The notes: a model not told the origin generated them from the sequence alone. Counted from the stretch's first letter, positions 618-61,068 are shown. The stretch: DNA of 64,000 nt from an uncultured Candidatus Saccharibacteria bacterium (GCA_964485625.1 CAZAJM010000001.1:29803-93802); one strand, 5' to 3'. Translations and numbers: made by a program.

Positions 618-1370
618 ATGGCAGGACATTCCAAGTGGGCGAATATTAAGCACCGTAAGGGCAGACAAGATAAGAAAAGGGGTAAGCTTTTTAGTAAGCT
701 ATCTAAGATGATATCAACTGCCGCTAGGGAGGGTGGCGGAGATATTGATATGAACCCTAATTTATCTATGGTAGTAGATAAGGCTAAAGAGGCCAATATG
801 CCTAAAAGTAATATTGAGCGAGCGATTAAGAAAGGCACCGGTGAACTAGAAGGCGAAGAGTATAAGTCGGACAGATTAGAGGCCTACGGCTCAGGCGGAG
901 TCGCCATTATTATCAATATCATGACAGATAATCGTAATAGGACATTATCGGACTTGAAAGGAATTTTGCGTGATCATGAGGGCAGTTTGGCAGAGAAAGG
1001 CTCTGTTGCTTGGAAGTTTGAGAAGAAAGGTAAAATGTTGATAGAGGTAGCCAGCGAAGAAGACCGAGATAGATTACTTGAGCCAATTATTGAGTTTGGT
1101 GCAGAGGACTATCAGGAGTTGGATGACGGTCTGTTGGTCTACACTAGCCCCAGCCAGCTTCATGAAGTAAAGCGGAAGTTAGAACAGAACAAGATTAAGG
1201 CTAAAGAAGCTGAGTTTACCTGGGAGCCCAAGATTGAGGTGAAGATAGAGGATAAAAGTACTGCCAAACGAATACTAAACTTGATGGATGAGCTCGAGGA
1301 CCATGATGATGTTGAGTCGGTCTATGCTGATTTTGATATTGAGGATAAAATATTAAATGAAATTAGATGA
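618..1370 (+). CDS. yebC: YebC/PmpR family DNA-binding transcriptional regulator
   Basis: N-terminus MAGHSKWANIKHRKGRQDKKRGKLFSKL is the YebC signature. 250 aa, and immediately upstream of ruvC as in many bacteria. Confidence 0.9.
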   Translation: MAGHSKWANIKHRKGRQDKKRGKLFSKLSKMISTAAREGGGDIDMNPNLSMVVDKAKEANMPKSNIERAIKKGTGELEGEEYKSDRLEAYGSGGVAIIINIMTDNRNRTLSDLKGILRDHEGSLAEKGSVAWKFEKKGKMLIEVASEEDRDRLLEPIIEFGAEDYQELDDGLLVYTSPSQLHEVKRKLEQNKIKAKEAEFTWEPKIEVKIEDKSTAKRILNLMDELEDHDDVESVYADFDIEDKILNEIR

Positions 1371-1837
1371 AGATCTTAGGAATCGACCCCGGTATCGCTA
1401 GGGTAGGATGGGGGTTGGTTGAAAAAAAGGATGGGCAAGAGAAGTACTTAGATTGTGGACTGATTAGTACTAGTAAAAATACTTCTGAACCGGAGAGATT
1501 AAAGAAGATCTACAAGGCCACTTGTGATATAATAAAGGAGAGTCAGCCAGATCTGGTGGCTATTGAGAAACTTTACTTTTTTAAAAACCAGAAAACTGCT
1601 TTTGTAGTTAGTCAGGCCAGAGGAGTGATAGTTCTAGCGGCGGCTAGCAAAAAAAGAAAGATAAAGAGTTTTACACCTCTACAGATCAAACAATCCGTTA
1701 GTGGTTATGGTCAGGCAACTAAGGCTCAGGTTGGCAATATGGTTAAAGCGATTTTATCTTTAGATAAGGTGCCCAAGCCCGATGATGTTGCCGATGGGCT
1801 GGCCTGTGCGATCTGTGCTAGTAGTAGTGTAAGATAA
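1367..1837 (+). CDS. ruvC: Holliday junction resolvase RuvC
   Basis: MKILGIDPGIARVGWG... is the RuvC N-terminal catalytic Asp motif. 156 aa; start overlaps the yebC stop. Confidence 0.9.
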   Translation: MKILGIDPGIARVGWGLVEKKDGQEKYLDCGLISTSKNTSEPERLKKIYKATCDIIKESQPDLVAIEKLYFFKNQKTAFVVSQARGVIVLAAASKKRKIKSFTPLQIKQSVSGYGQATKAQVGNMVKAILSLDKVPKPDDVADGLACAICASSSVR

Positions 1838-1856
1838 AAGAAGGAGGGTTAAGTAA

Positions 1857-2867
1857 GTGCCTAGATTACGTCAAAATATGACTACAGGTGAGTGGGTGGT
1901 AATTGCTCCCGGTAGGTCCAAGCGGCCTCAAGATTTTGTTAGCGCCACCTCTGCTAAGAGAGTCTCTAAAAAAGACTGTCCTTTCTGCATGGAAAACAAT
2001 AAGGCGTATAAGACGTCGATTAAAGAGTATGAGACAGATAATGTCTATGTGATTCCCAACCTCTATCCGGCCTTTGTTAATGAGGATGAGGTAACTGAGC
2101 AAGGCGGGGATTTCTATCCCAGCTACAAGAGTCTGGGCGGTCATGATGTGATTATCTTAAAAGACCATGATAAAGAACTAGAAGATCTAAAAAGATCTAC
2201 TTTAGAAGAGTACTATCATATCTATCAAAAGCGAATTAATTTTTTCAAAAAAAATCCAGTGGTAGAATATGCTATGGTTATCCATAACTTTGGTCCGGAG
2301 TCGGGTGCTAGTATCGTTCATCCTCACTCTCAGCTGATGGCCTCTGCAGTTATTCCGCCTCGGGTAGATCTAGAACTAAAAACTACTAAAAAATATTATC
2401 AAGAACATGGCAGCTGTGTTTATTGTGACTTAATTAAAAACGAACTGGAAGACAAGATTAGAATTATTGGAGAGAATAATAAATTTATTGCCTTTACTTT
2501 CTGGGCGGCCCGTTTCCCTTTTGAGGCCTGGATCATGCCCAAGCGCCATGAGCTTTTCTTTGAGGATATTGGTAGATCAGAGAGATTAGCTTTAGCGGAG
2601 GTCTTTGATCAAGTGCTAACTAAATATGATAAGGCTCTTAACCAGCCACCATATAACTACTATATCCATACTACTCCACCCAGATTAGAGAATGAGCCAC
2701 ACTTAAAAGATTACTATCATTGGCATATTGAGATTACTCCCCGGGTAAGTAACTTTGGTGGCTATGAACTGGGTTCTGGGTTGGTGATCGATGTTGTCTC
2801 TCCGGAAAAAGCGGCTAGTTTTTTAAACAACCCCAAACAAGAAGAAAGTCAGGATTCATTTGCCTAA
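1857..2867 (+). CDS. GalT-like hexose-1-phosphate uridylyl/nucleotidyl transferase (HIT superfamily, branch III)
   Basis: CPFC zinc motif near the N-terminus and an HPHSQ histidine-triad-like active site (GalT HPHxQ). About 336 aa, typical of GalT. Confidence 0.7.
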   Translation: MPRLRQNMTTGEWVVIAPGRSKRPQDFVSATSAKRVSKKDCPFCMENNKAYKTSIKEYETDNVYVIPNLYPAFVNEDEVTEQGGDFYPSYKSLGGHDVIILKDHDKELEDLKRSTLEEYYHIYQKRINFFKKNPVVEYAMVIHNFGPESGASIVHPHSQLMASAVIPPRVDLELKTTKKYYQEHGSCVYCDLIKNELEDKIRIIGENNKFIAFTFWAARFPFEAWIMPKRHELFFEDIGRSERLALAEVFDQVLTKYDKALNQPPYNYYIHTTPPRLENEPHLKDYYHWHIEITPRVSNFGGYELGSGLVIDVVSPEKAASFLNNPKQEESQDSFA

Positions 2868-2918
2868 TCAACTAAATATTGATAGATTAATATATACATT
2901 TAAGAAAAGGAATTAATC

Positions 2919-3641
2919 ATGAATAAAACTGTTCAATACCTAATCTACTTTCTACTTCTAGTCTTAATCTTCTGGCTCTGGCTTAGTGGTGCTCTGGCTA
3001 GAGGGGTTGATTTTGCCCTCAGGTCAGGTGTGCCGGAGAAGACCATGATCTTAGTTCTGGCTCTGCCGATCGTGGTTACTCTTGTCTCATTTTCAAGACA
3101 GGTTATTGGCTTTCGAGTCTTTGGTATCTACCTGCCCTCAATTTTAACCATAATTTTTCTAGACATTGGTATCCAGTACGGCCTAATTCTGTTTATCACT
3201 ATTATCTTGCTAGGTACTTTTATGAGGTTTCTGCTCCAAAAATACCGTCTGCTCTATTTGCCCAGAATGTCGATAACTCTAACCGTAATTGCTCTGGGTA
3301 TGGTTATCTTTCTAGTTCTATCAGGCTACTTTGACTTTACCAATATTGCTCAGGCGACGGTCTTCTCTATGCTTCTAATGATAATTTTAGCTGAGAAGTT
3401 TATTGAGGCGGAGATCGAGAAAGGTTTGCCCGAGACAATCAAGCTTACTTTTGAAACACTAATCATCTCTATCTTAGCCACTCTTCTAGTAAGATGGCCT
3501 CTACTCCAGAACTTCTTGTTGCTCCACCCAGAAAGCATTATTGCAGTTATTATCTTTAATTTAAGTGTGGGCAGATGGACAGGCCTAAGAATTAGAGAGT
3601 ACTTGCGTTTTGGCGATGTAATTAACAAACAGGAGGAATAA
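2919..3641 (+). CDS. Polytopic membrane protein, 7TM type associated with RimK-like ATP-grasp systems (7TM_transglut-like module without a transglutaminase domain)
   Basis: 240 aa, about 7 hydrophobic helices. Immediately upstream of, and translationally coupled to, the ATP-grasp/retropepsin gene (stop TAA directly followed by ATG at 3642). Confidence 0.45.
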   Translation: MNKTVQYLIYFLLLVLIFWLWLSGALARGVDFALRSGVPEKTMILVLALPIVVTLVSFSRQVIGFRVFGIYLPSILTIIFLDIGIQYGLILFITIILLGTFMRFLLQKYRLLYLPRMSITLTVIALGMVIFLVLSGYFDFTNIAQATVFSMLLMIILAEKFIEAEIEKGLPETIKLTFETLIISILATLLVRWPLLQNFLLLHPESIIAVIIFNLSVGRWTGLRIREYLRFGDVINKQEE

Positions 3642-5039
3642 TTGATGGCTAGCCCGGACAAAATCTTAGGGATGAACGCTCGTAATTTGATATATATCCG
3701 TCCTAATAATCTAAAACCGGCAACTAGATTAGCTGATGATAAGCTTGGGCACAAGAAACTCCTAGATGACAATGAGTACCCGGTGCCAAATATTTTTGCT
3801 GAGTTTAAAACTCCAGATGATGTCCAACAGTTTGATTGGAAGAACCTACCCAACTCTTTTGTAATTAAGCCGGCTATGGGTTTTGGCGGAGAGGGTATTA
3901 TGGTTGTCTTTGCTAAGACCAAAGAGGGCTGGATTAGAACCGATGGCTCAACAATTGATATCGAGCAGATGAAGATTCACTGCCTAGATATTCTAGATGG
4001 TTCCTACTCCATGCACTCCACTCCGGATGTGGCCTTTATTGAACAGAAAGTAATTACCCACCCGGTCTTTAAGAAGTATACCTATAAAGGAACTCCTGAT
4101 ATTAGAATTATTGTTTTTAATCAGGTGCCGGTGATGGCCATGCTTCGGGTGCCGACAGAAGAGTCCGATGGCAGAGCCAATCTTCATGCCGGAGCACTAG
4201 GCATTGGTATTGAGATAGCCAGTGGCATTACTACCCATGCTATCTACCACGGTCATGAAGTTTCTCGGTTGCCCAGCAATAACAAGGTTAAGCTTCATGG
4301 GCTTAAGATCCCTTATTGGGACGATATGCTCAAGATGTCTTCTGAAATTCAAAAACTTACCGATATTGGCTATTTGGGTTTGGACTTTGTTCTAGACAAG
4401 AACGAAGGGCCAATGATTTTAGAGCTTAACGCTAGGCCAGGGCTTTCAATTCAAAATGCTAATCTGGCTCCACTGCGAGATAGACTAAGAAGAGTAAAGG
4501 GGCTAAAGATAAAAAACTCAACCAAGGCGGTAAGAATTGCCAAAGAGCTTTTTGGTGGAGAGATTGAAAGAGAGGTTGAGGAGGCAACGGGCAGGCCAAT
4601 GGTTGGTTTTGTAGAGAAGGTCAAGATTGAGGGGAGAAAGAAGAAAAAGGCAGAAGTGAAAGCCAAGATAGATACGGGTGCCGGTTTTAGCTCTGTTGAA
4701 AGGGAGTTGGCTAGAGATCTGGGATACAAAAAGTCGATAGAGTTTTTCGACTCTTTTGATCTACCTGAATCGGTTTCGGCCGATGAGGCTAGAAAAATGT
4801 GTGAAGATTATGAACCTAAAATGTTAAAAGACAAACATATTATAGATGTGGCTATAGTTCACTCATCTCATGGCAGTAGTATAAGGCCTGTGATTAAACC
4901 GAAAATCACTCTTTCGGGAAAAACATTCCATGCCAAAGTAAACATATCTAAAAGAGAGCATTTAATGTATCCAATGATCGTTGGCAGAAGAGACTTGAAA
5001 GGTTTTATTGTTAATCCGGAGAAAAGTTTTGTGAAATGA
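3642..5039 (+). CDS. RimK-related alpha-L-glutamate-ligase-like ATP-grasp fused to a C-terminal retropepsin-like (PF05618 'ATP-dependent Zn protease'-type) domain
   Basis: The N-terminal ~300 aa carry ATP-grasp features (KPAMGFGGEGIMVV, ILELNARPG). The C-terminal ~150 aa carry a DTGA aspartyl motif (KIDTGAGFSS) and a ...MIVGRRDLKGFIVNPEKSF tail, as in PF05618. Confidence 0.7.
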   Translation: MMASPDKILGMNARNLIYIRPNNLKPATRLADDKLGHKKLLDDNEYPVPNIFAEFKTPDDVQQFDWKNLPNSFVIKPAMGFGGEGIMVVFAKTKEGWIRTDGSTIDIEQMKIHCLDILDGSYSMHSTPDVAFIEQKVITHPVFKKYTYKGTPDIRIIVFNQVPVMAMLRVPTEESDGRANLHAGALGIGIEIASGITTHAIYHGHEVSRLPSNNKVKLHGLKIPYWDDMLKMSSEIQKLTDIGYLGLDFVLDKNEGPMILELNARPGLSIQNANLAPLRDRLRRVKGLKIKNSTKAVRIAKELFGGEIEREVEEATGRPMVGFVEKVKIEGRKKKKAEVKAKIDTGAGFSSVERELARDLGYKKSIEFFDSFDLPESVSADEARKMCEDYEPKMLKDKHIIDVAIVHSSHGSSIRPVIKPKITLSGKTFHAKVNISKREHLMYPMIVGRRDLKGFIVNPEKSFVK

Positions 5040-5479
5040 AGGAAGATGTATTAATTAGGATGGGGGAAGACAAGGACTTAGAAGAAGTATTATTTTTAGA
5101 CAATAAGATATTTCCTCAAAACAAGGTTAGTAGAAATAAGCTAAAAAAGAGAGTCGAAAATAATCTAGTTGTTGTGGCGGAGATTGGTAGTGAAATAGCC
5201 GCTTTTTCATTCTACAAGCCTCAAAATAAAAATAGTTGGCTGATGGGTAAGGTAGCCGTTAGTGAAAAACATAGAAGAAAGGGTGTAGGTACTAAGTTAT
5301 TTGATTTTGTTCTTAAACGGGCTAGGCAAAATGGAATTAATAAATTAATCTATCGAGTCAGAAGGGATAATAAGAAGGCAATTAAGATGTATAAGAGAAG
5401 AGGAGCAATTATCGCCAAAGAGATAAAAAGCTTTTATCGAGATGGTCAAAGTGCTTATCAAATGGAAGAGAAGATATAA
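5036..5479 (+). CDS. GNAT family N-acetyltransferase (RimI-like)
   Basis: Acetyl-CoA binding motif HRRKGVGTKLFDFVL. 147 aa. ATGA overlap with the upstream ATP-grasp gene. Confidence 0.8.
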   Translation: MKEDVLIRMGEDKDLEEVLFLDNKIFPQNKVSRNKLKKRVENNLVVVAEIGSEIAAFSFYKPQNKNSWLMGKVAVSEKHRRKGVGTKLFDFVLKRARQNGINKLIYRVRRDNKKAIKMYKRRGAIIAKEIKSFYRDGQSAYQMEEKI

Positions 5480-5495
5480 GCTTGAATGTTCAATT

Positions 5496-6242
5496 ATGAA
5501 TGAATTAGAACCAACTTTAAGACAAAATAATCAAGAAAGAGCAGAAAAGCTTGATAATGAATGGTTTGAAGATTTTATTAAAAACGGCAAAATTGAGCCA
5601 CCCTTACTATTGTCTGGAGAAAAAAAGTATCGAGCTGCTCAAAAAGAGGCTTTTCTTGCTGGTGAGATTGAAAATCCATCATTAGATTATCCGGAGTTTG
5701 ATTTGGATGATTTAGCAAAGAGAGAAGGCAATTTAAGAGAGCTAAAAAGGCAAGTAAGGTTGTCTGTAGATGACACCGATGAAGCGGCTTTTGTAGAGAG
5801 TAGGGAGGCTAGGGTTGTTAGGCAAGCCTATTTATGGCGAATAAATGAGTCTATTGCCTCTATCGGCCTGTTAAGAGCAGCGGCAGAAGGAGAGAAGAGA
5901 GATTTTAGAGGTGTCTATGAAATAATGGAGAAATATTTTTACTTGAGTAATTTATTAAAAGATCAGGATTCGGAGAAAGCTAGGGAAAAAGCTCAAACAA
6001 GTGCTTGGAAACGATGTGTTAGAACCTTCAGGGGTAGCGATTGTAAAACCCCGGGAGTTTGTTTTACTAAAGATATTGCTTATCGAGAAGGTCAGATTGG
6101 AGTTTGGCAGGTAGTGGCTGATAGTCCTGACGAGGTAAGAAGATTTAGTATTGGCAAATATGATCCGGCCAATGATAGGCATATTTGGATATTGGATCAA
6201 CTTGGAATTACGGATGATGATTTGGAGAAATTAGAGAAATAA
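5496..6242 (+). CDS. Hypothetical protein; last gene of the inserted operon between ruvC and ruvA
   Basis: ORF with an ATG at 5496 (MNELEPT...). Charged and probably helical; no recognisable motif. Confidence 0.45.
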   Translation: MNELEPTLRQNNQERAEKLDNEWFEDFIKNGKIEPPLLLSGEKKYRAAQKEAFLAGEIENPSLDYPEFDLDDLAKREGNLRELKRQVRLSVDDTDEAAFVESREARVVRQAYLWRINESIASIGLLRAAAEGEKRDFRGVYEIMEKYFYLSNLLKDQDSEKAREKAQTSAWKRCVRTFRGSDCKTPGVCFTKDIAYREGQIGVWQVVADSPDEVRRFSIGKYDPANDRHIWILDQLGITDDDLEKLEK

Positions 6243-6252
6243 TTAAATATTT

Positions 6253-6834
6253 ATGATCGGATATTTGGCAGGAGAGATTAAAAAAATAGGTGAGGATTAT
6301 CTGGTGGTCTTTGTAGTGACTGCTAAGGGTTTTGGTATTGGATATAAGATAAATGTCAGTGAGAAGCTGATTGATAAGTTTAAGGTTGGTGAAAGAATCG
6401 AGCTATATATTCACCACTACTTAACAGAGCAGAGTGAGGATCTTTACGGCTTCTTAAATATTGGTGAGCTGGATCTGTTTGAGAGCTTGATTGAGGTTTC
6501 CGGGGTTGGCCCTAAAGCAGCTCAGGCCTTACTCTCTTCTTTGAGTGTCTCTTCAATTAAAGATGCTATTAGCGAAGGTAGTGTTGATGTACTTACAGAG
6601 GCTAAGGGAATTGGTAAGAAAGGTGCTCAGAAGATCATCGCTGAACTTTCTGATGTAATTGCTCGGAAGGGAATTGAAGGCTTGGAAGGAAGCGGTCCTA
6701 AGGCAGAGGCCTACGAGGCCTTACTTGAGCTTGGGTATAACCAAGTGGAGGCTAAAACAGCTTTGCGAATGGTTGATAGTGATCTAAAAGATAGTGAAAA
6801 GATTGTTAAGGCGGCTCTCTCTAATATTAGCTAG
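6253..6834 (+). CDS. ruvA: Holliday junction branch-migration protein RuvA
   Basis: MIGYLAGEI... N-terminus, HhH region (GVGPKAAQALL, GIGKKGAQKII), and a C-terminal RuvB-binding domain. 193 aa. Confidence 0.9.
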   Translation: MIGYLAGEIKKIGEDYLVVFVVTAKGFGIGYKINVSEKLIDKFKVGERIELYIHHYLTEQSEDLYGFLNIGELDLFESLIEVSGVGPKAAQALLSSLSVSSIKDAISEGSVDVLTEAKGIGKKGAQKIIAELSDVIARKGIEGLEGSGPKAEAYEALLELGYNQVEAKTALRMVDSDLKDSEKIVKAALSNIS

Positions 6835-6892
6835 TTATACTATCTAAATTATGTTAAACTAAACTTAGTCTATAAGGTTATTTTTTCTAATT

Positions 6893-7921
6893 ATGAGTGA
6901 AGAGATTACGGATCCAAAAGTTACTGACGAGCAGGAGGAGATGATCGATCTGACTCTACGTCCGGAGAGCTTGGAAGAGTTTGTCGGCCAAAGCAGAGTT
7001 AAGGAAAATCTAGATATTTTTATTAGGGCAGCTAAAGGTCGGGATGAAGCCCTAGAGCATATCTTGCTCCACGGTCCGCCTGGTTTGGGTAAGACTACTC
7101 TGGCAAATATCATTGCCAAGGAGACCGGATCGAGCATTCGAATCACCTCCGGTCCGGCTATTGAGCGGGCTGGCGACTTGGCCTCTCTGCTTACCAATAT
7201 TTCCGATGGGGATATTCTTTTTATTGATGAAATTCATCGGCTTAACAAACAGATTGAAGAGGTGCTCTATCCGGCGATGGAAGATAAGGCACTAGATATT
7301 ATTGTTGGCAAGGGGCCATCGGCTCGTACTCTGCGCTTAGATTTGCCCAAGTTTACCATTATTGGCGCTACGACTAAGGCGGCCTCTATCTCCTCTCCTC
7401 TAAGGGATCGGTTCGGCGCTGTTCATCGACTTGTTTTCTATAGTGATGAAGATATCAAGCGGATTGTTAAGCGCTCGGCCGGTATTTTAGAGATGGAGAT
7501 TGATGAGCAGGCAGCAGAGATGCTAGCCACTAGATCAAGGCGGACCCCCCGAATCGCTAACCGGATTTTAAAAAGAGTTAGGGATTATGCTCAAGTAGAA
7601 TCTGATGGGGTGGTTGATAAGGCCACTGCTCAGTCTGCTTTGGAGATGTTGGCAATTGATGAGAAGGGCTTAGATGAGATCGATCGGAGTATAATAGAGG
7701 TAATAATTAATAATTTCTCTGGTGGACCGGTGGGCTTAAAAGCCCTTTCGGCCGCAGTTAGTGAAGAGAAAGAAACAATCGAGGAGGTCTATGAGCCATA
7801 TTTAATGCAGATTGGTTTTTTGGATCGAACCTCTCAGGGTAGGGTAGCGACCAAGAACGCCTATCTTCATTTGGGTAAAAAATTTATTGATCCGGAAGGA
7901 GGTGAGAATAAGTTGATATGA
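6893..7921 (+). CDS. ruvB: Holliday junction ATP-dependent DNA helicase RuvB
   Basis: [12 protein letters not shown]...[16 protein letters not shown] Walker A, DEIHRL Walker B, and a winged-helix C-terminus. 342 aa. Confidence 0.95.
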
Positions 7922-8103
7922 TATTTGTCTTACTTGCATATTTAGCTTTTGTCTTGATCTTTGCTATTTTTAGCTACTTTGCCCTCTATCATATCTGGCG
8001 ATTTGGTTTTGTTGGGGATCTAACTAAAATAGTTGTTTATGGCTATGTTATTTTATCACTATTAATTATTATCATTAGTTTGTTTTTGATTTTTGTAATT
8101 TAA
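7918..8103 (+). CDS. Small hydrophobic membrane peptide (hypothetical)
   Basis: 61-aa, two-TM ORF overlapping the ruvB stop. No motif. Confidence 0.3.
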
Positions 8104-8106
8104 TTT

Positions 8107-8913
8107 ATGAACAATAGAAAAGAGAGAAGAATTCAATTTCCGGGAAGGCAGACTGGGGAGAAGGTTAATCTGTTTTTCCGTCGTCATCCACTTAGTTTTT
8201 TTGGTTTTAGTCTAATCGGATTTATTATGGTTGCTCTGCCCCTGGTGGTTTTTGTTGTAATGATTAATAGTGGTTTTCTGTTATTAGATGGCCCCCTAGA
8301 TTACAAAGTTGCCGTAGCTATAATTAGCGCCTATCTGCTTTTTGTAATGGGGATGATGATTGTTGCCTGGATGAACTTCTATTTAGACGTATACATTGTT
8401 ACAGACAAGAGGCTGATAGATATTCATCAGGCAGGTCTTTTTAGCAGAAATCTCTCGGCTGTTGATTTGGTAGATGTCGAAGATGTTAAGGCCGATGTTA
8501 AAGGCCTGCTGGCGACCTACTTTAATTTTGGAACAGTAGATATCCAGACGGCTGGGGAACTACAAAATGTTCAATTTACTGATGTGCCGGAGCCATATAG
8601 GTTGGCTAGAAAAGTTATGGACTACCATGAAGAAGCGGTTAGAGAGCAGAGGGAGGAGGCTATTAAGAAAGTTGCTCAAGAAGAGAAAGAGGCGGAAGAG
8701 GTGGGGGGTGAAGTCTCTCCAGCCCCAAAAAAATCAGATAGTCAATTGGAGGCCAATGTCGATTCAGGTGAGGTTAAGATAGAGAAAGAACCAGACTCGA
8801 CTAAAATTGAGGAGATTGATAGTGATGTTGGGCCCAAACAAGGCCAAGACGAACAAGAAGATAGGCAGGTTAATAACAAGGAGCTAAAAGAGGGGGGTGA
8901 GATAGATCTTTAG
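8107..8913 (+). CDS. Membrane protein with a bacterial PH-like (bPH_2/YdbT-like) domain and an acidic C-terminal tail
   Basis: Two N-terminal TM helices, then YLDVYIVTDKRLIDI...FGTVDIQTAG typical of bPH_2. D/E-rich C-terminus. Confidence 0.55.
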   Translation: MNNRKERRIQFPGRQTGEKVNLFFRRHPLSFFGFSLIGFIMVALPLVVFVVMINSGFLLLDGPLDYKVAVAIISAYLLFVMGMMIVAWMNFYLDVYIVTDKRLIDIHQAGLFSRNLSAVDLVDVEDVKADVKGLLATYFNFGTVDIQTAGELQNVQFTDVPEPYRLARKVMDYHEEAVREQREEAIKKVAQEEKEAEEVGGEVSPAPKKSDSQLEANVDSGEVKIEKEPDSTKIEEIDSDVGPKQGQDEQEDRQVNNKELKEGGEIDL

Positions 8914-8948: not shown

Positions 8949-11900
8949 ATGAGAAATAGATTAAAATCTTTTCTTTTTCTGTGCGGCTTTTTCCTTGTCT
9001 TAGTCGCTGCTTACTTTATTTTCCCCTTATTTACGACCGCCGATGCAGGGGAGGATATTACGATCTCTACAGATACTACCTGGTCAGCCGGTGAGTATAC
9101 CTATCAGGATATAACTATTACTAATAATGCTACGCTAACCTTAGAGGCAGATACAGGTACGGATACAGGTGTAACAATAAATGCCCGTAATATTAATATT
9201 GAGTCGGGTTCTTCAATTTCTGCTGACAGCCAAGGTTATCCAGCTGTGTCTGGTACTGCACCAGGTACAACTTGGATTGGCCGAGGAGGTGGAGGAGCTT
9301 ATGGAGGTAACGGTGGTAATGCTAGTATTGTTTCAGGTGATTCTGGTTTAGGTGGGATTAGTTTTGGCTCAAATTTTAACCCCAACTCTTTAGGTTCGGG
9401 TGGCGGCAGAGACCCCGAAGGCGGTAGTGGGGGTGGATTAATAAAGTTAGATCTTTCGGGGGACCTTTCAGTTGAAGGAATATTATCTGCTGATGGAGGT
9501 GACGGTACTCATGGTAGAGCAGGTGGCGGATCAGGTGGTGGAATTTATATTAAAGCAGATGAAGTTATTGGCGGGGGAGATATTTCTGCCAATGGCGGTT
9601 CATCTCCTGCTTCTGGCGGTGGTGGTGGAGGCGGGCGAATAGCTATCTATTATTCTTCCGGTCTTACTCTTGCCTCGGAAAATATCATTGTAGGTGGTGG
9701 CTCTGGGGGCGGTGACAGTGACAGAGATGGTCAGGCGGGTTCGATTTTTATTTTTGATAGTTCATCGAGAAACCTTACTGTTGATGAAGATTTAAGTTTG
9801 ACAACTAACTGGGGTTTTGATGAGAGTGGTAACCCCACTAGCGATGGTGAGTATAATCTAAATAATTTGACAGTAACTAATAATTCAACCTTAATTCTTG
9901 AGGGCTATCACACTGATGATTCTGATGGTGTGGGAGTTACAATCAATTTGGATGGCGATCTTGATGTAGATTCTGGCTCAACAATATCTGCTGACGAACA
10001 AGGCTATTCTGCTGAATATGGTCCTGGCAAAGGCCAGACTGATTCTGGTAGAAATGGCGGTGCTGGTTATGGCGGTGATGGTCAACATTGGAGATATGGA
10101 GATATTGGTGTTGGTACAGCTGGTATTAGTTACGGTAATACCATGATGCCCAATGATTTAGGATCTGGTGGTGGCGGAGTTGGTTATGGCGGAGATGGAG
10201 GTGGAATGGTTAAAATATTGGCTGAAGGTAGTGTTGATATTAATGGTACTATGTCTGCTAATGGCGGAAATGGGAGTTATTATAGTGGGTCAAGAGGTGG
10301 TGGTGGGAGTGGCGGCACAGTTTTCATAAGAGCTGATAGTGTCACGGGCAACGGATCGATCGAAGCTGATGGTGGTAATGGTGAGGCAGGAGGTTTTTCA
10401 GGTGGTGGTTCTGGAGGTCGAGTGGCGATATATTCTGCTACGATATCTATAAATTCGGCTAATATTAGTGCTGATGCAGGCACAAACAACGAAGGTACTC
10501 CAGCTGAGGATGGCACAATTTTCCTTTACAACACAACCACAGGTGATGTAACAGTAGAGAACGACGTTACTTTTAGTGGTGATCAAGGCGTTAATCGAGA
10601 TGGTACTTCCAGAACAGATGGCGTTTACTATTTTAATAACTTAACAATTTCAGATAGCTCAACAGTGACCCTTGAGAGCTACTTTACTGATAGTAGTGAT
10701 GGCAGAGGTGTGACAATAAACTTGGACGGTGATCTCACCCTGGGAGCTGGCTCTACTATTACTGCCTCGGGTCAAGGTTATACGGCTGGCTATGGCCAAG
10801 GGAAAGGCAACTGGGCTGGCGGTCTCCAGAGTGGATCGGGAGGTAGTTATGGAGGCGAAGGTGGATTTTCAGAACCTGCCGGCAATCCTACAAGTCCCGG
10901 TACTGTTTATGGTGAAAATCAAAAATATTATCCTTACTTTTTAGGTTCTCCAGGGGGCAGTACTCATGGGGCTGATGGTAATGCTGCTACTGGCGGAGGG
11001 GCAATCGCTATTAGAGCTTTAGGAGATATAGTTATTAATGGAGATATTAAGGCTAATGGAGAAGGGGGGGTAAATGGAACTTCAAATTATGGTGGTGGTG
11101 GTGGAAGCGGTGGAAGTATTTTTATGTCGGCTAACAATTTTAGTGGTAGTGGTAATATTCAAGCTAACGGTGGGGGTTTAGGGGTTGGCAATGGGTTTAG
11201 AGCTGGAGGCGGAGGTGGTGGCAGGATATCTATTGCCTACTTTGATAGTTTTACAATAGATGATAATAATGTTATTGCTACGGGGGGAAGTGGAGATGGT
11301 AGTGATAGAGATGGTAGTGACGGAACAGTCTATATCAGAAAGATGGAACTTCCTGAGGCTGATTTTAATCTCAAAAATCCAAATAATAACTCAACACAAT
11401 ATACTAATAGTAGGAATGTAAATATTGAGCCGGAGGACGAAGATGCTGATGAGTACTATGAATCTAGTAATGGTGATCCAACCCCAGCTTTCTATATATC
11501 AGGTTGGCATAAAGTAAGCGAAGGCAAGCAGCTGGATTCAGCTGAAGGAACAAAACAAGTAAGGGCTTGGATTAAAGACTCAAATGCTTTGATTTCATCT
11601 AGTGTTGGCACAGCCAATATTGTTCTTGATCAGACTAAACCAACTATCAACCTATCTACTAAGAACTCTTCTACCGCTAACAGCAAGATTAAGATTAAAG
11701 GTGTAATTTATGATCAGCTTTCAGGGGCCGACTATATTCAGATAAACGGCACCTCTCATAGTTTAAGTACTAATAATTTTTGCTTGATGATGAGTGGTCG
11801 GGAGAATGGATCAGGCAATACTGCCACAGATCAATCTTTTGAAGCGGATGTTAGTTTAGCCAACGGTTTAAATACTTTCACTTTAATTGCTTTTGATCGA

Positions 11901-12500
11901 GCTGGTAATAGCCAGATGGCTAGCTTAGAAATTACTAAGGAGGAGGGTTCTCAAGACAGTGATCAGGACCCCTGGTCTGATGTTCCAGAGTATATTGGTG
12001 GAGATGAGGCTGAAGATGATGAAATTGATTCTAATGGTGATAAACAGAATGAGGATGTTGATGTTGGCATTGTTGATTTGGATAAAATAGAGGAAGACTA
12101 TGATGAAGATTTTGATTACGATGAAGATGGGAATAAGCTTATATTTAATAATAGAAATCCTGTTATTAGAGGTAATTCTGATCCGGAAGCAGAGATAGTG
12201 CTAGTTATTGATGGCCAAGAACATAGAACTAGTGCTGATAGTGAGGGCAATTGGTCTTACCAATTTAGCAATCTTGAAGTTGGTGAGTATAGTTTAAATA
12301 TTAGTGAATATACTAAGGAGGGGGAGCTAGTAAGATCTCAAGACTATATTTTAGAAATTAAAGATCAAGATCAGCAAGATAAGAGTATCTTCTATAGTTA
12401 CTGGTGGCTCTGGTTAATAATTTTAGCAATTATTGTTACCATTATATATTACTATCTAAAAAAGAAAGATAATTTTGGAGATAGCAGTACTAGTAATTAG
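8949..12500 (+). CDS. Giant (1183 aa) secreted, C-terminally membrane-anchored, Gly-rich beta-helix-like surface protein with three internal ~270-aa repeats
   Basis: N-terminal signal peptide. The module ...GVTINLDGDL..GSTISA..QGY...GGGGSGG...GGRIAIYYS is repeated three times, approximately nt 9100-9700, 9900-10450 and 10690-11250. D/E-rich spacer, then a C-terminal TM (WWLWLIILAIIVTIIYYYLKKK). Confidence 0.8.
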   Translation: MRNRLKSFLFLCGFFLVLVAAYFIFPLFTTADAGEDITISTDTTWSAGEYTYQDITITNNATLTLEADTGTDTGVTINARNINIESGSSISADSQGYPAVSGTAPGTTWIGRGGGGAYGGNGGNASIVSGDSGLGGISFGSNFNPNSLGSGGGRDPEGGSGGGLIKLDLSGDLSVEGILSADGGDGTHGRAGGGSGGGIYIKADEVIGGGDISANGGSSPASGGGGGGGRIAIYYSSGLTLASENIIVGGGSGGGDSDRDGQAGSIFIFDSSSRNLTVDEDLSLTTNWGFDESGNPTSDGEYNLNNLTVTNNSTLILEGYHTDDSDGVGVTINLDGDLDVDSGSTISADEQGYSAEYGPGKGQTDSGRNGGAGYGGDGQHWRYGDIGVGTAGISYGNTMMPNDLGSGGGGVGYGGDGGGMVKILAEGSVDINGTMSANGGNGSYYSGSRGGGGSGGTVFIRADSVTGNGSIEADGGNGEAGGFSGGGSGGRVAIYSATISINSANISADAGTNNEGTPAEDGTIFLYNTTTGDVTVENDVTFSGDQGVNRDGTSRTDGVYYFNNLTISDSSTVTLESYFTDSSDGRGVTINLDGDLTLGAGSTITASGQGYTAGYGQGKGNWAGGLQSGSGGSYGGEGGFSEPAGNPTSPGTVYGENQKYYPYFLGSPGGSTHGADGNAATGGGAIAIRALGDIVINGDIKANGEGGVNGTSNYGGGGGSGGSIFMSANNFSGSGNIQANGGGLGVGNGFRAGGGGGGRISIAYFDSFTIDDNNVIATGGSGDGSDRDGSDGTVYIRKMELPEADFNLKNPNNNSTQYTNSRNVNIEPEDEDADEYYESSNGDPTPAFYISGWHKVSEGKQLDSAEGTKQVRAWIKDSNALISSSVGTANIVLDQTKPTINLSTKNSSTANSKIKIKGVIYDQLSGADYIQINGTSHSLSTNNFCLMMSGRENGSGNTATDQSFEADVSLANGLNTFTLIAFDRAGNSQMASLEITKEEGSQDSDQDPWSDVPEYIGGDEAEDDEIDSNGDKQNEDVDVGIVDLDKIEEDYDEDFDYDEDGNKLIFNNRNPVIRGNSDPEAEIVLVIDGQEHRTSADSEGNWSYQFSNLEVGEYSLNISEYTKEGELVRSQDYILEIKDQDQQDKSIFYSYWWLWLIILAIIVTIIYYYLKKKDNFGDSSTSN

Positions 12501-12960
12501 CCTGTTAATGATGGTATCCGGCTTTGCCGGTGTTATATTGCCGTTTTTACCTGACATGCTTCTTATCTTCGCCGGGGCCCTAACCTACGCTCTATTCAAT
12601 GGTTTTTCGGTTATAACCCCTACTGTGTTGTTAGTTATTGCTGGGCTGACGATCTTCTCTTTTCTAGTTGATATTATCTCCTCTACTTTAGGGGCCAAGA
12701 CTCAACAAGCAAGTAAATATGGCCAGTTTGGTGCTGTTATTGGGGCAGTTATTGGTATCTTTACATCAGGATTTCTGGGTATTATTCTAGGTCCAGTTTT
12801 GGGAGTTATTTTGTTTGAGATGATCTTTGCTAAGAAGAAGTTTGACCGGGCTTTTCAAGCAGGTTTGGGTTCATTAGTGGGCTTTATTTTTGGCTCCCTC
12901 TTAAAGCTGATTATTGCTGGCTTTACCATAGCTTGGTTTGTTAAATTGGTATTATTTTAG
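12475..12960 (+). CDS. DUF456-like small polytopic membrane protein
   Basis: MEIAVLVISLLMMVSGFAGVILPFLPDMLL resembles the DUF456 N-terminus. Four TM helices. The true start may be the internal Met near 12508, because the ORF start overlaps the preceding gene. Confidence 0.5.
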   Translation: MEIAVLVISLLMMVSGFAGVILPFLPDMLLIFAGALTYALFNGFSVITPTVLLVIAGLTIFSFLVDIISSTLGAKTQQASKYGQFGAVIGAVIGIFTSGFLGIILGPVLGVILFEMIFAKKKFDRAFQAGLGSLVGFIFGSLLKLIIAGFTIAWFVKLVLF

Positions 12961-12984
12961 AATATTGGCTATAATAGGCCTAGT

Positions 12985-15009
12985 ATGGAGGGGGTAGTAA
13001 ATAATATTCCAAAGTATTTTTTCCTAGCACTGCTGGTAGTTTTTCTTCTGCCGGTTTTTTGTTTAGCCGGAGAGAAGAGCTTGGTTATTAACGAGGTTTA
13101 TTATGATACCATCGGCATAGATAGCAAGGAAGAGTTTGTAGAGATATATAACCAAACCGGAGAGGTTGTAGATCTGAACAACTGGAGACTTGAAGATAAT
13201 TCTAATAGTGGTAGATATGTTTTTGAAGACATATCTATACCAGGTGAGGGTTTTCTTATTTTGGCCAGAGATAGGGCGGGCTTTCAAGAGCTATTTAATT
13301 TTGATCCTGATCTAGCCAATCTAAAGATAAATTTAAATAATAGTGGAGACTATCTAGAACTATACAACCCAGATAATAATCTTGTTGATAAGATAAGCTG
13401 GGAGTTAAAGGAAGATGATCCAAGTGCTAAGACGGGAGAGAGTATAGAGAGATCACCGGCCGGTTCGGATAATATTACTATCAGTGTCCAGCCTACTCCA
13501 GGTCTTGGTCTGATTTCACCCCCAAAGATCAAAGATATTAAGGTTAGTCAGGAAGTAGCGGAGATAGATTATTATGCTCCAAATTCAGCAGAATTTGACC
13601 GTCTTGAAGTCTATCTTGATGATGGTAGTGGTTTTAAATTAGAGAAGAGTTATTTAAGTCAGCCAAATAGAATAATTATCGATAATTTAGAACTAGCTAG
13701 TAACTATATTGTTAAGATTAATCTAGTGTTAATCTACCAATCAAAAGAGTATGGTTTTGAATCCCAACCCAAACAGTTTAAAACAGATTTTGACTACAGT
13801 GATCAAGTAGTAATTAGTGAGCTCTACCCTAATCCAGAAGAGGGGGAGGAAGAATTTATTGAGCTATATAACAGTTCGAGCAGGACCGTAAGTCTAGATG
13901 GCTGGAGTCTAGAAGATAATGCTAAGTCCTATTATCTAGATGGCCATAAAATTGCTCCGGGAGAGTATTATTTATTAACTAAATCTCAAACCGGTATAAG
14001 CTTAAATAATAGTGGGGACAAGCTGAGCCTTATTTATCCGGATGGCTCAATTAGTGATCAGACAGAGTACCAGTTAATTGATAGAGGCATTTCGTGGTCG
14101 AGAAATGCAAAAAATAGTTTCTCTAAGACCTCAAAACCGACGCCTGGCACAGAAAATATTTATTCTAACCTTGAGCAGAACGAAGAAAGACCTATCTTAG
14201 ACTTAACAATTGCTCAGTCTCTAAAAGTAGATGATGGTCGGTTGGTTAGAATTAGAGGAAAGTTAAGTGTTAGTAGAAATGTTTTTGGCAAGCAGTACCT
14301 ATATCTCCAGGATAATACGGCGGGCATCCAGCTATATAACTATCATGGTCGGTGGCCTAAACTTAAGCTGGGAGATAAAATTGAGGTTATTGGAGAGCTA
14401 TCAAGCGTCCGCGGTGAGCGAAGAATTAAGATTACAAGTATTGATAATATCAGTATTATTGGCAGAAATAACAAGATTAGGCCTTGTCGACTTAATTGGT
14501 CTAACCCAGACCGACAGATTGGCAAACTAGTTAGAACCAAAGCAGAAGTCTCCGGGTCAGCAGGCAGCACATTCTATTTAGCCAATAAAAATCATGAGAT
14601 AAAAGTATATATCAAAGGCTCAACCGGAATCAATAAGCCAAAAACCTACAAAGGCAGTTTAGTGGAAGTTGTAGGCATTCTTACTAAGACAAGTGTCGGA
14701 TACAAGATTCTGCCAAGAAAGAATATGGACATTACTCTTATCCAGAGCCCAGCTGATCAGGCAACAAGTGACAAATATAGTTTAGCTTCGTACTCTAAGA
14801 ATGGTGAAGCTGTAAGTCTTGCTAATAAGGCTAGTCCTCGGGTTGCTGGGAGTATAGATATGCCCAACCCGGTCGACTATAGAGATAAATTTAATAACAA
14901 TAGCCAAGCTAAACAATTCCAATTTGCCTATCTTTTGATTGCCTTTGGCTTGCTTGGCCTATTTGGTCTGGGAGGATATAGCTACTTAGAGCAGTATCTT
15001 GAAATCTAA
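12985..15009 (+). CDS. Lamin-tail-domain (LTD) protein with two LTDs, an OB-fold-like domain and a C-terminal TM anchor
   Basis: Two copies of the LTD signature (LVINEVYYD...EFVEIYN...DLNNWRLED and VVISELYPNP...EFIELYN...LDGWSLED). Signal peptide. C-terminal hydrophobic anchor. Confidence 0.8.
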   Translation: MEGVVNNIPKYFFLALLVVFLLPVFCLAGEKSLVINEVYYDTIGIDSKEEFVEIYNQTGEVVDLNNWRLEDNSNSGRYVFEDISIPGEGFLILARDRAGFQELFNFDPDLANLKINLNNSGDYLELYNPDNNLVDKISWELKEDDPSAKTGESIERSPAGSDNITISVQPTPGLGLISPPKIKDIKVSQEVAEIDYYAPNSAEFDRLEVYLDDGSGFKLEKSYLSQPNRIIIDNLELASNYIVKINLVLIYQSKEYGFESQPKQFKTDFDYSDQVVISELYPNPEEGEEEFIELYNSSSRTVSLDGWSLEDNAKSYYLDGHKIAPGEYYLLTKSQTGISLNNSGDKLSLIYPDGSISDQTEYQLIDRGISWSRNAKNSFSKTSKPTPGTENIYSNLEQNEERPILDLTIAQSLKVDDGRLVRIRGKLSVSRNVFGKQYLYLQDNTAGIQLYNYHGRWPKLKLGDKIEVIGELSSVRGERRIKITSIDNISIIGRNNKIRPCRLNWSNPDRQIGKLVRTKAEVSGSAGSTFYLANKNHEIKVYIKGSTGINKPKTYKGSLVEVVGILTKTSVGYKILPRKNMDITLIQSPADQATSDKYSLASYSKNGEAVSLANKASPRVAGSIDMPNPVDYRDKFNNNSQAKQFQFAYLLIAFGLLGLFGLGGYSYLEQYLEI

Positions 15010-15469
15010 GTTGTTTGCCAGTATAGTTGAGGCCAATATGGATAAAATAATTACTGGTAGCAACCTGGAAACTAAAAATTTTGCCAAGAAGCTGGCCCCT
15101 AGTTTAAAGGGTGGTAGTTTGGTCTGTCTCTATGGCGACTTAGGTGCCGGCAAGACAGTATTTGCCAAAGGCATTGCCCAGGCTTTAGGGATAGAAGAGG
15201 AAGTCAACAGTCCCAGCTATACTATCTTGAAGATATACAGACTTAAAGAAAAAAAGTTCGACTTAGCTCATTTTGATTTCTACCGCTTAAAAGACCACGA
15301 GCTTAACTACCCTCCAGCTGATCTTCAAGATTATCTAACTAAAGATTATCTGGTTCTGATAGAATGGCCTGAGAGGGTTGAGAAATTTCTGCCCAAAAGC
15401 AAAGGTAGAGTTAATATTGTTATTAAAAATATTGGTGATAATAAAAGGGAGCTAAAGTTTAAAAAATGA
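14999..15469 (+). CDS. tsaE: tRNA threonylcarbamoyladenosine biosynthesis ATPase TsaE
   Basis: LYGDLGAGKTVFAKGIAQALGI...NSPSYTI is the TsaE/YjeE signature. 156 aa. Confidence 0.85.
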   Translation: MKSKLFASIVEANMDKIITGSNLETKNFAKKLAPSLKGGSLVCLYGDLGAGKTVFAKGIAQALGIEEEVNSPSYTILKIYRLKEKKFDLAHFDFYRLKDHELNYPPADLQDYLTKDYLVLIEWPERVEKFLPKSKGRVNIVIKNIGDNKRELKFKK

Positions 15470-15894
15470 AATTAGCAATAGATACTAGTAGTAAGGATAG
15501 TCAGATAATATTACTTAATGAGAGTAACGAAGTTGTTGATCGGATTAATTGGTCTAAGAAGTCTAGTCAGTCAGAGTTGACTTTAAAGAATATCGATAAA
15601 ATTCTAAAAAACAGTCACTCCAGTATCTCTAAAATTAAGGCCATATTTGTTAATAAGGGACCTCTAACTGAGCCTGGCGAAGAAGCCTCATTTACAGGCC
15701 TAAAAATTGGAGTTACTGTGGCCAATAGTTTAGCTTTTTCTTTAAAAATACCTGTCTATGGTGTATCATTGTCTAGTCGGTCATTTTTAGATGAGATTAA
15801 AAATTTAAAAATAGATAGAACAAAAAATAAAGAGAAATATGTCCAACCGGTCTATCCCAAGGAGCCTAATATTCAGTTAAAAAATGAAAAGTAA
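15466..15894 (+). CDS. tsaB: TsaB-like (inactive Kae1/YeaZ homologue), short form
   Basis: MKLAIDTSS... then a GPLTEPGEEASFTGLKIGVTVANSLAF-type motif. Only 142 aa, so the C-terminal half of canonical TsaB is missing. Overlaps the tsaE stop. Confidence 0.65.
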   Translation: MKLAIDTSSKDSQIILLNESNEVVDRINWSKKSSQSELTLKNIDKILKNSHSSISKIKAIFVNKGPLTEPGEEASFTGLKIGVTVANSLAFSLKIPVYGVSLSSRSFLDEIKNLKIDRTKNKEKYVQPVYPKEPNIQLKNEK

Positions 15895-51156: not shown

Positions 51157-51171
51157 ATTCTATCAATATTC

Positions 51172-51241
51172 GGTATTCGGAAGTCCGACCCGCCTGCCAA
51201 AGACTGAAGCTTTGCTGATGGCGGGCAGGCTTCCGAATATT
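51172..51241. repeat. GC-rich miniature repeat, copy D, nested inside the hairpin arms ATTCGGAAG...CTTCCGAAT
   Basis: attcggaagtccgacCCGCCTGCCaaagactgaagctttgctgaTGGCGGGCAGGcttccgaat. The core is the reverse-complement orientation of copy E. Confidence 0.6.
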
Positions 51242-51282
51242 ATTAATGATTTAATAGTAATTTATCAGGTTGTGTACAAAAT

Positions 51283-51309
51283 CGGAAGTCCGACTTCCGA
51301 TTTTAGGAA
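51283..51309. terminator. Perfect 13-bp-stem palindrome AAAATCGGAAGTC-CGA-GACTTCCGATTTT just 3' of uvrA; probable bidirectional intrinsic terminator and core-less relative of repeat D
   Basis: Inverted repeat read directly from the sequence. A/T runs on both sides. Confidence 0.6.
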
Positions 51310-53822: not shown

Positions 53823-53833
53823 GATATTTATCT

Positions 53834-53900
53834 AAATCGGAAGGCCTGCCCGCCATTGCCTACGGCTTCAGTCGTTGGCAGGCGGGTTACCTTCAGAATT
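53834..53900. repeat. GC-rich miniature repeat, copy E (CCTGCCCGCCATTGCCTACGGCTTCAGTCGTTGGCAGGCGGG at 53845-53886), flanked by TCGGAAGG/CCTTCAGA partial inverted arms
   Basis: Sits in the 45-nt uvrB-uvrA intergenic spacer. Termini CCTGCCCGCC/GGCAGGCGGG. Confidence 0.6.
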
Positions 53901-60880: not shown

Positions 60881-60922
60881 GAACATTACATTTTTAACTA
60901 TCTGTTTTTTTAACTAAAAAAA

Positions 60923-60997: not shown

Positions 60998-61068
60998 ATC
61001 TAGAAATAATATAGCAGAAGCTAGGCCATATTTCAATATCTAGTTATTTTGATATAATATAGACACAT

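Follow-up and report, generated by a model that had tools for sequence, protein, structure and literature searches.

The closest described relatives of the genes analysed here belong to rlo (retropepsin-like osmotic stress tolerance), an operon described in Pseudomonas aeruginosa and P. fluorescens (Lormand et al., mBio 2025; PMC12239564). RloA is a secreted retropepsin-like peptidase that cuts stretches of at least eight Glu residues in vitro, RloB combines an inactive transglutaminase with a seven-transmembrane-helix (7TM) domain, and RloC is a cytoplasmic ATP-grasp protein (PMC12239564). In P. aeruginosa, loss of all three proteases (rloA1-3) makes the cells misshapen, reduces biofilm formation and confers sensitivity to hypo-osmotic conditions and to the cell-wall antibiotic ampicillin; deletion of rloB or rloC suppresses the defects of this triple mutant in cell shape, in growth under hypo-osmotic conditions and in sensitivity to beta-lactams (PMC12239564). 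Proteobacteria account for 96% of RloB matches (PMC12239564). We analysed a module built from the same three families in a 64,000-nt stretch of DNA (hereafter the window) from an uncultured Candidatus Saccharibacteria bacterium (GCA_964485625.1 CAZAJM010000001.1:29803-93802), to which the coordinates below refer. It consists of a gene for a 7TM protein followed by a single gene in which an ATP-grasp ligase and a retropepsin-like peptidase are fused. These families were reportedly first described by Iyer et al. in 2009.

The original prediction for this locus had called the trio of 7TM protein, ATP-grasp ligase and peptidase functionally uncharacterised. This description is out of date: the trio corresponds to rloABC of P. 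aeruginosa (PMC12239564), NCBIfam models exist for RloA1-3, RloB and RimB, and the proteins of the window match them. Judged from its sequence, the locus is a copy, with degenerate accessory genes, of a very large and apparently undescribed fused variant of Rlo in Patescibacteria (candidate phyla radiation, CPR). No paper linking the CPR module to Rlo, or retropepsin-like peptidases to Patescibacteria, was found in the searchable literature. We consider it rather probable (about 0.58) that the module is the CPR version of Rlo, with a two-gene core of 7TM protein and fusion enzyme that makes acidic peptides for the cell envelope and trims them.

The 7TM protein and the ligase-peptidase fusion

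The core of the module comprises the following features.

2919-3641, + strand: RloB-like 7TM membrane protein, 240 aa (PF14402, NF052267)
3645-5039 (alternative start 3642), + strand: RloC-type ATP-grasp::RloA-type retropepsin fusion, 464 aa (TIGR02291, PF14397, PF05618)
3663-4556 (residues 7-304), + strand: ATP-grasp ligase domain of the fusion (TIGR02291, PF14397)
4548-4592 (residues 302-316), + strand: acidic linker of the fusion, LFGGEIEREVEEATG (alignment of 27 sequences)
4605-5036 (residues ~321-464), + strand: retropepsin-like peptidase domain of the fusion (PF05618, NF052264)

Profile searches bore out all the domain identities that had been proposed, and the Pfam and NCBIfam matches of the module domains score far past chance. 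The ligase half of the fusion matches TIGR02291 at 7.6e-82 (274.8 bits; residues 7-304, profile positions 11-313 of 317), and its best Pfam model is PF14397 (ATPgrasp_ST; 6e-65, residues 14-286). The TIGR02291 type is clearly its closest family, though the score stays under the equivalog threshold. The residues of the Mg/ATP motif, D247, E260 and N262, which lie in part within an ELNARPG motif, are invariant in an alignment of 27 sequences.

The C-terminal domain is, as predicted, retropepsin-like: residues 320-464 match PF05618 at 5.8e-11 (42.9 bits, gathering score 27), and the DTGA motif was found at residues 343-346 (nt 4671-4682). Among the NCBIfam models, NF052264 (RloA3) matches at 5e-12 and RimB at 4e-3. 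Residues K341, D343, R414 and R437 of the fusion align on K46, D48, R114 and R137 of RloA, of which D48 is the catalytic Asp and the other three are poly-Glu-binding residues (PMC12239564). D343, R414 and R437 are invariant in the 27 family members, and position 341 is conserved as K or R. A profile of the peptidase domain searched against the PDB matched 9G58 (8.6e-9) and 9G59 (5.6e-7), the codes given for the RloA crystal structures (PMC12239564), as well as Legionella 2PMA. This profile was needed for the match; the whole fusion, used as a single sequence against the PDB sequences, found nothing.

The AlphaFold2 (AF2) model of the fusion has a predicted local distance difference test score (pLDDT) of 82.4. 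Its top Foldseek matches are ArgX/LysX, RimK, DdlB and cyanophycin synthetase, and among these ArgX/LysX, RimK and cyanophycin synthetase (CphA) are ligases that extend C-terminal carboxylates. With the whole model as the query, the ATP-grasp matches dominate and give no independent fold evidence for the peptidase domain. Neither a signal peptide nor a hydrophobic segment was detected in the fusion, the N-terminus of which is MASPDKILGMNARN (maximum 17-residue hydropathy, 1.46). The peptidase is therefore predicted to be cytoplasmic.

Between the two domains lies a linker with the near-invariant consensus LFGGE-I-E-x-x-V-E-E-x-x-G. Of its residues, F303, G305, E306 and G316 do not vary in the 27 sequences, and the conservation of L302, G304, E308 and E312 reaches 90% or more. 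The linker is predicted to be disordered, the pLDDT of residues 307-320 being below 50. Since it falls outside both the RloC (TIGR02291) and the RloA profile matches, it is specific to the fused architecture. A conserved, flexible acidic segment beside a protease that prefers acidic substrates may, speculatively, be a pseudosubstrate or a self-cleavage site. The linker holds five to six Glu residues, which are interrupted; RloA requires at least eight consecutive Glu (PMC12239564).

The 7TM protein matches PF14402 (7TM_transglut) at 4e-24 over profile positions 57-246 of 248, and NF052267 (RloB) at 1.8e-20 over positions 312-506 of 508 only, that is, over the last ~195. The topology predicted from hydropathy and the positive-inside rule consists of an extra N-terminal helix (TM0), a 14-residue outside loop, a seven-helix core and a cytoplasmic C-terminal tail; the AF2 model has a pLDDT of 84.7. 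The 14-residue loop stands where the ectodomain of RloB would be, and the 240-aa protein has no inactive-transglutaminase ectodomain. Most of the invariant residues of the family (R60, Q61, Y113-L114-P115, E159, E167, W220, R224, E227, R230 and F231) are on the cytoplasmic loops and tail. Such a conserved face toward the cytoplasm fits the docking of a cytoplasmic partner.

The 7TM stop codon is 3 nt upstream of the fusion ATG at 3645, and an AGGAGG Shine-Dalgarno sequence for the fusion gene lies inside the final 7TM codons, Q-E-E (3631-3641). This placement indicates that the true start of the fusion is ATG 3645, giving 464 aa, and not TTG 3642. It also accounts for the -QEE tail of the 7TM protein. 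This tail was considered as an S6-like acceptor of polyglutamylation and was ruled out, since 80 orthologues have basic tails.

The ectodomain of the 7TM protein varies within the family. At loci labelled Falkowbacteria (L003-L006, L012, L048, L051, L055 and L057) the protein is ~517 aa long and carries N-terminal extracellular PKD domains, which take the place of the RloB transglutaminase ectodomain. Many other loci have a separate large PKD-containing protein just upstream of yebC.

The gene pair and its neighbours across Patescibacteria

The original prediction had treated the fusion of ligase and protease as a feature of this locus. A scan of one genome per species confirmed at least 584 relatives; in these genomes the fused form is the standard architecture, and it is no peculiarity of the window. 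Among the 120 matches listed, nearly all are fused proteins of ~465 aa with 46-87% identity, and nearly all the named ones are labelled Patescibacteria (Moranbacteria, Falkowbacteria, Parcubacteria). The assignment of the family to Patescibacteria follows the database labels of the homologues. Gene neighbourhoods were counted in the best 80 of the at least 584 loci, almost all of them labelled Patescibacteria, after annotation against reference proteins; smaller denominators are the loci that could be tested.

7TM gene directly upstream of the fusion: 77/77
ruvC directly upstream of the 7TM gene: 66/77
yebC preceding ruvC: 53/63
Class A penicillin-binding protein (PBP1) gene within 6 kb downstream of the fusion: 56/65
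PBP gene co-directional versus opposite: 59 versus 3
Extra ATP-grasp genes between the fusion and PBP genes, 0 / 1 / 2 / 3: 14 / 22 / 23 / 6 loci
Full-length MATCAP gene: 10/65
GNAT gene: 1/65
GalT gene: 0/80

The ruv genes had been thought to be interrupted here by an insertion between ruvC and ruvA. The order is instead lineage-wide: ruvC is found directly upstream in 66 of the 77 loci, and ruvA comes next after the module or after the PBP1 gene in L010, L011, L018, L019, L025, L037, L050 and L051. Since the position next to ruvC is common across the lineage, the arrangement in the window is not a local insertion. Two findings had been named as speaking against the original prediction, a lineage-wide ruv order with unrelated gene functions and a C-terminal domain that fails to match PF05618; the order is indeed that of the lineage, and the domain does match PF05618.

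The 7TM and fusion genes are, in most CPR genomes, adjacent and co-directional with genes for RimK-like or CphA-G-like ligases, for a class A PBP and sometimes for a MATCAP-type carboxypeptidase. The extra ligases belong, by NCBIfam models, to the RimK family or resemble the G domain of cyanophycin synthetase. Their identification as Ddl or GRASP3 was ruled out by the same models. Since they are not true Ddl ligases, it is the adjacency of PBP1 alone that points to peptidoglycan. This linkage persists in loci labelled Falkowbacteria, Moranbacteria and Paceibacteria/Parcubacteria. The recurrence of peptide-extending ligases, MATCAP and PBP beside the pair suggests that the pathway is probably tied to wall or envelope homeostasis, in agreement with the cell-wall phenotypes of the Pseudomonas rlo mutants.

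It is worth noting another possible interpretation of the pair. The fusion might add and trim Glu tails on a cytoplasmic protein, for example ribosomal protein S6, in the manner of RimK and RimB, and the 7TM protein might only regulate or localise it. Both catalytic domains are predicted to be cytoplasmic, RimK is among the closest structural neighbours, and RimB is homologous to the protease domain. The profile scores, however, favour the Rlo families: the fusion reaches 39 bits on rimK_fam (TIGR00768; cutoff 143.4) and 17 bits on RimB (NF052261; cutoff 200), to be set against 7.6e-82 on TIGR02291, and 5e-12 on RloA3 against 4e-3 on RimB. In addition, rim loci contain nothing equivalent to the obligate 7TM partner (77/77), and separate RimK-family genes adjoin the fusion in 43 of 76 loci. 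No conserved acidic C-terminus was found in the neighbours PBP1, YebC, RuvC, the bacterial-PH-domain (bPH) protein, the RimK-like protein or RuvA, and rpsF was not found in the 64-kb window. We consider a RimK/RimB-like role very unlikely.

Accessory genes and other features of the window

The genes on both sides of the core pair, and one distant ligase gene, are as follows.

618-1370, + strand: yebC (Pfam PF01709/PF20772)
1367-1837, + strand: ruvC (Pfam PF02075)
1857-2867, + strand: GalT-type HIT nucleotidyltransferase (TIGR00209, PF01087/PF02744)
5036-5479, + strand: GNAT acetyltransferase, 147 aa (PF00583)
5496-6242 (alternative start 5442), + strand: open reading frame (ORF) 5, a MATCAP/DUF1704 gene with a deletion (PF08014)
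6253-6834, + strand: ruvA (Pfam)
6893-7921, + strand: ruvB (Pfam)
62255-63283, + strand: stand-alone ATP-grasp ligase, cyanophycin-synthetase-G-like, without an M domain (TIGR02068, 8.3e-58, positions 158-468)

The five ORFs between ruvC and ruvA were found at the coordinates originally given, all on the + strand. Their description as five translationally coupled genes holds for two junctions only, that between the 7TM and fusion genes and that between the fusion and GNAT genes, where the ATGA overlap is real; the remaining junctions are gaps of 10-51 nt. A scan of the + strand over 903-8236 revealed no terminator-like site, and the genes could be co-transcribed. The GC content drops to 0.33-0.35 across 4751-5750, compared with about 0.40-0.44 in the flanks; this segment spans the 3' end of the fusion gene, the GNAT gene and the 5' part of ORF5.

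Three relatives of the locus, given with the identity of their fusion to that of the window, were compared.

L002, 67%: yebC-ruvC-GalT-7TM-fusion, a RimK-like gene, ruvA-ruvB; no GNAT gene
L086, 83%: GalT-7TM-fusion-GNAT, with the ATGA overlap kept
L087, 87%: 7TM-fusion, a YdjC-type deacetylase gene, a full-length MATCAP gene

The GalT-type protein scores 131 bits on TIGR00209 (cutoff 102.1) and carries the motifs CPFC at residue 41 and HPHSQ at residue 155. Since it is limited to L001, L002 and L086 and occurs in none of the 80 distant loci, it is a clade-specific neighbour and no part of the core module. The GNAT protein matches PF00583 at 5e-16 (59.5 bits, gathering score 20.7) and has an RRKGVG acetyl-CoA motif. 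It had been described as RimI-like; the GNAT assignment stands, and its score of 61.9 bits on rimI (TIGR01575) is below the cutoff of 86.4 and does not make it a RimI equivalog. L086 has the gene, L087 and L002 lack it, and among distant loci it occurs at 1 of 65. The GNAT is therefore a lineage-specific accessory gene in a low-GC stretch. It had been regarded as an added member of the system, with a possible role as a peptidyl transferase; since it is not conserved with the module, this role has no comparative support. In L087 the slot of the GNAT gene is occupied (2868-3491 of that locus) by a YdjC-type chitin-disaccharide deacetylase (NF002559, 4e-32). The same slot thus holds an acetyl-removing enzyme in L087 and an acetyl-adding enzyme in the window.

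The fifth gene, originally called hypothetical, belongs to the MATCAP family and has suffered an internal deletion. ORF5 matches PF08014 at 3.8e-7 (29.8 bits, gathering score 27) and also TIGR02421 (QEGLA), in both cases in its C-terminal part only. Its longer database relatives are mostly annotated as DUF1704 or tyrosine-phenylalanine carboxypeptidase, ~415-433 aa, from Moranbacteria and Parcubacteria. Full-length homologues have 415-476 aa, and the retained parts of ORF5 are 55-83% identical to full-length CPR members. Both ends of the protein are kept, and alignment columns ~139-371 are deleted. In comparison with the L087 gene (476 aa; blastn and blastp), nt 40-414 of ORF5 match nt 55-430, and nt 391-747 match nt 1075-1431. 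The 24-nt overlap of the two matches falls in two similar internal segments, IG(M/L)LRAA.EG..R.F and IGLARGLDGEKRDF. The deletion is thus of 669 nt, in-frame and between short repeats, with its junction at residues 122-137 (nt 5859-5906). A search of the other reading frames for the deleted core found no remnant.

MATCAP/TMCP enzymes remove C-terminal Tyr and deglutamylate; their HExxxH motif binds the metal, and its Glu (E281 in human TMCP1) is catalytic (PMC10499314). The motif HE(I/V)GTH, present in 6 of 6 aligned full-length homologues, is absent from ORF5, and GEEG is also lost. Since this core is missing, the product is very probably inactive. The differing gene contents of L002, L086 and L087 indicate that the slot behind the fusion turns over fast and that the MATCAP deletion is recent.

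In the window, a GNAT gene has been gained, the MATCAP catalytic core has been deleted, and neither a PBP1 gene (none in the whole 64 kb) nor an extra ligase gene is found at this site. From the sequence it is likely that only the 7TM and fusion core is functional here and that the accessory set has decayed or been swapped. The ligase encoded at 62255-63283, which lies 57 kb from the fusion and is ~27% identical to the ligases of the Falkowbacteria clusters, may be an unlinked counterpart of the accessory ligases found next to the fusion elsewhere in Patescibacteria. A true Ddl is also present in the window, at 47626-48621.

These distributions bear on a more restrictive explanation, in which there is no five-gene system: only the 7TM protein and the fusion would cooperate, and GalT, GNAT and the MATCAP remnant, the product of which is probably inactive, would be unrelated or decaying passengers of a tightly packed CPR super-operon. 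The GNAT could then be a RimI-type N-acetyltransferase, and the ruv and PBP1 order would be inherited without functional meaning. The distributions of GalT, GNAT and MATCAP are indeed patchy, the catalytic core of ORF5 is deleted, the GNAT region is low in GC, and CPR gene order is broadly conserved, including the unrelated yebC, ruvC and ruvB-bPH genes. On the other hand, the overlap of the fusion and GNAT genes is conserved in L086, the accessory slot always holds peptide or acyl enzymes (ligases, carboxypeptidase, GNAT, deacetylase), and the linkage to PBP1 extends across loci labelled Falkowbacteria, Moranbacteria and Paceibacteria/Parcubacteria. We judge this explanation, taken as a whole, to be quite unlikely.

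Several other genes of the window deserve mention. Downstream of ruvA, a membrane ORF of 61 aa and a bPH protein come after ruvB (7918-8913). The ruvB-bPH pair occurs in ~40 of 80 distant loci (L006-L085), mostly just upstream of yebC and often with a large surface protein in between. A run of envelope genes at 8949-17254 (+) encodes a repetitive, Gly-rich surface protein of 1183 aa, which has a Big_13 domain and is anchored by a C-terminal transmembrane segment, a protein of 674 aa with a lamin-tail domain, and a wall-polymer ligase of the LCP (LytR-CpsA-Psr) type. Two tandem GH130 genes (beta-1,4-mannooligosaccharide phosphorylase family), the first with an N-terminal extension of ~330 aa, lie at 23386-26926 (-), and a uvrC, uvrA, uvrB cluster at 49987-55748 (-). 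A reverse transcriptase of 331 aa is encoded at 59885-60880 (+; PF00078 RVT_1, 2.3e-23); upstream of it is a 278-aa ORF at 58232-59068 (+) with no Pfam match, and a tRNA-Pro gene lies at 60922-60998 (-). The reverse transcriptase may be part of a diversity-generating retroelement, of a retron or of a group II intron fragment. The PADLOC anti-phage defence models gave no match at E<=1e-3 to any of the five proteins encoded between ruvC and ruvA.

Proposed function and comparison with known systems

The general idea of the original prediction, the synthesis and trimming of a peptide or poly-Glu modification tied to a membrane protein, agrees with these results, and the role that it gave to the GNAT has no comparative support. 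In the two-gene reading that we prefer, the ligase would use ATP to add alpha-linked acidic residues, most likely L-Glu, onto a carboxylate, possibly that of free Glu, of an oligo-Glu chain or of the C-terminus of some acceptor molecule. The retropepsin domain would dimerise between two fusion protomers and cut poly-Glu stretches, and this cutting would limit or recycle the ligase product. The fusion enzyme would dock at the membrane on the conserved cytoplasmic face of the 7TM protein, which would probably pass the product toward the envelope.

Several points weigh against this reading. The TIGR02291 score of 274.8 bits is below the curated equivalog cutoff of 314.2, and neither RloC nor any protein of the CPR family has a known biochemical substrate. 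With a cytoplasmic protease and a 7TM protein lacking the ectodomain, the compartment logic of Pseudomonas, in which the protease is secreted, does not transfer. The synteny with PBP1 may reflect a generally frozen CPR gene order, and PBP1 is absent from the window. Finally, PF14397 is named for an association with sugar transfer, so that the acceptor could be a glycan and not a peptide.

This last point leads to a third alternative, the decoration of a glycan or a lipid-linked precursor. The ATP-grasp domain would amidate a carboxylate on a wall glycopolymer or peptidoglycan precursor with amino acids, the 7TM protein would handle the lipid-linked intermediate, the protease would trim the peptide decoration, and GalT, YdjC and PBP1 would act in the same wall pathway. 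Consistent with this, ATPgrasp_ST is the best Pfam model of the ligase, PBP1 is near the fusion in 56 of 65 loci, a GalT-type transferase is directly upstream of the pair in the clade of the window, a YdjC-type deacetylase fills the accessory slot of L087, the LCP ligase and large surface proteins are encoded just downstream in the window, and the Rlo phenotypes concern the cell wall (PMC12239564). However, GalT is absent from the 80 distant loci and YdjC was seen once only, the protease keeps the poly-Glu-binding residues of RloA, the accessory ligases are of the peptide-extending RimK-like and CphA-G-like types, and the conserved face of the 7TM protein is cytoplasmic. Decoration of a glycan therefore seems rather unlikely, and acidic-peptide synthesis by the two-gene core is preferred.

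A bolder form of the preferred reading is tentative and rather unlikely. In it, the fused RloC::RloA with the bare 7TM protein would be a core system of Patescibacteria that makes and meters a poly-alpha-Glu-like wall peptide, and would represent either an ancestral or an independently streamlined Rlo. In that case the linker LFGGE-x-E-x-x-x-E would act as a pseudosubstrate or as a self-cleavage site of the retroviral kind, switching the enzyme between building and trimming.

The molecular product of Rlo is of interest in Pseudomonas for antibiotic tolerance and biofilm formation. The CPR fusion offers a simpler, cytoplasmic, single-polypeptide ligase and protease that could be directly expressed and assayed, and the purpose of its product is hinted at by near-constant neighbours: a class A PBP, ligases that extend peptides and a carboxypeptidase of the deglutamylase type. 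The module is a widespread gene pair in Patescibacteria, the envelope biology of which is almost unknown. The copy in the window alone adds little, its accessory genes being clade-specific and one of them broken.

Among the known systems, those that form acidic dipeptides and cyanophycin share ligases with the module. The accessory ligases and the ORF at 62255-63283 match the G domain of CphA, and the same ligases match the ATP-grasp part of N-acetylglutaminylglutamine synthetase (Ngg); the pairing of a GNAT with an ATP-grasp enzyme also has a precedent in the synthesis of N-acetylated acidic peptides. The N-acetylaspartylglutamate (NAAG) synthetases RIMKLA and RIMKLB are further dipeptide-forming ATP-grasp enzymes for comparison. 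In contrast to these systems, the CPR module has neither a Mur-ligase-like M domain nor a cyanophycinase, and its GNAT is not conserved. The tubulin tail code likewise combines ATP-grasp ligases (TTL/TTLL) with MATCAP/TMCP peptidases, and a full-length MATCAP gene follows the fusion in ~10 of 65 loci and in L087. The CPR system is, however, bacterial, with no evident tubulin-like substrate, and the MATCAP of the window lacks its catalytic core.

The RimK-RimB(-RimA) system, which polyglutamylates ribosomal protein S6, also joins an ATP-grasp alpha-L-Glu ligase with a retropepsin-like peptidase for the trimming of Glu tails, and both activities are cytoplasmic. It differs in that the domains of the fusion score far higher on the RloC and RloA models than on those of RimK and RimB, that the CPR module has an obligatory 7TM partner not found in rim loci, and that no S6-like substrate with an acidic tail is evident.

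From Rlo itself the CPR module differs in several respects. Ligase and protease form one polypeptide with a conserved acidic linker; the protease has no signal peptide and is predicted to be cytoplasmic, whereas RloA is secreted or periplasmic; the 7TM protein lacks the periplasmic inactive-transglutaminase domain, being bare in most CPR and bearing PKD domains in the loci labelled Falkowbacteria; the gene order is B-(C::A) instead of A-B-C as in Pseudomonas; and the hosts are Patescibacteria, not mainly Proteobacteria. Since the secreted protease and the transglutaminase ectodomain are two defining features of Rlo, we do not call the module a member of it. The likeness lies in the same three families standing side by side, namely an ATP-grasp ligase closest to the TIGR02291 type, the PF14402 7TM protein and the PF05618 retropepsin-like peptidase, in the catalytic Asp and the poly-Glu-binding K/R residues of RloA that are kept in the fusion, and in a genomic context that, through PBP1, is mostly wall-related in CPR as well.

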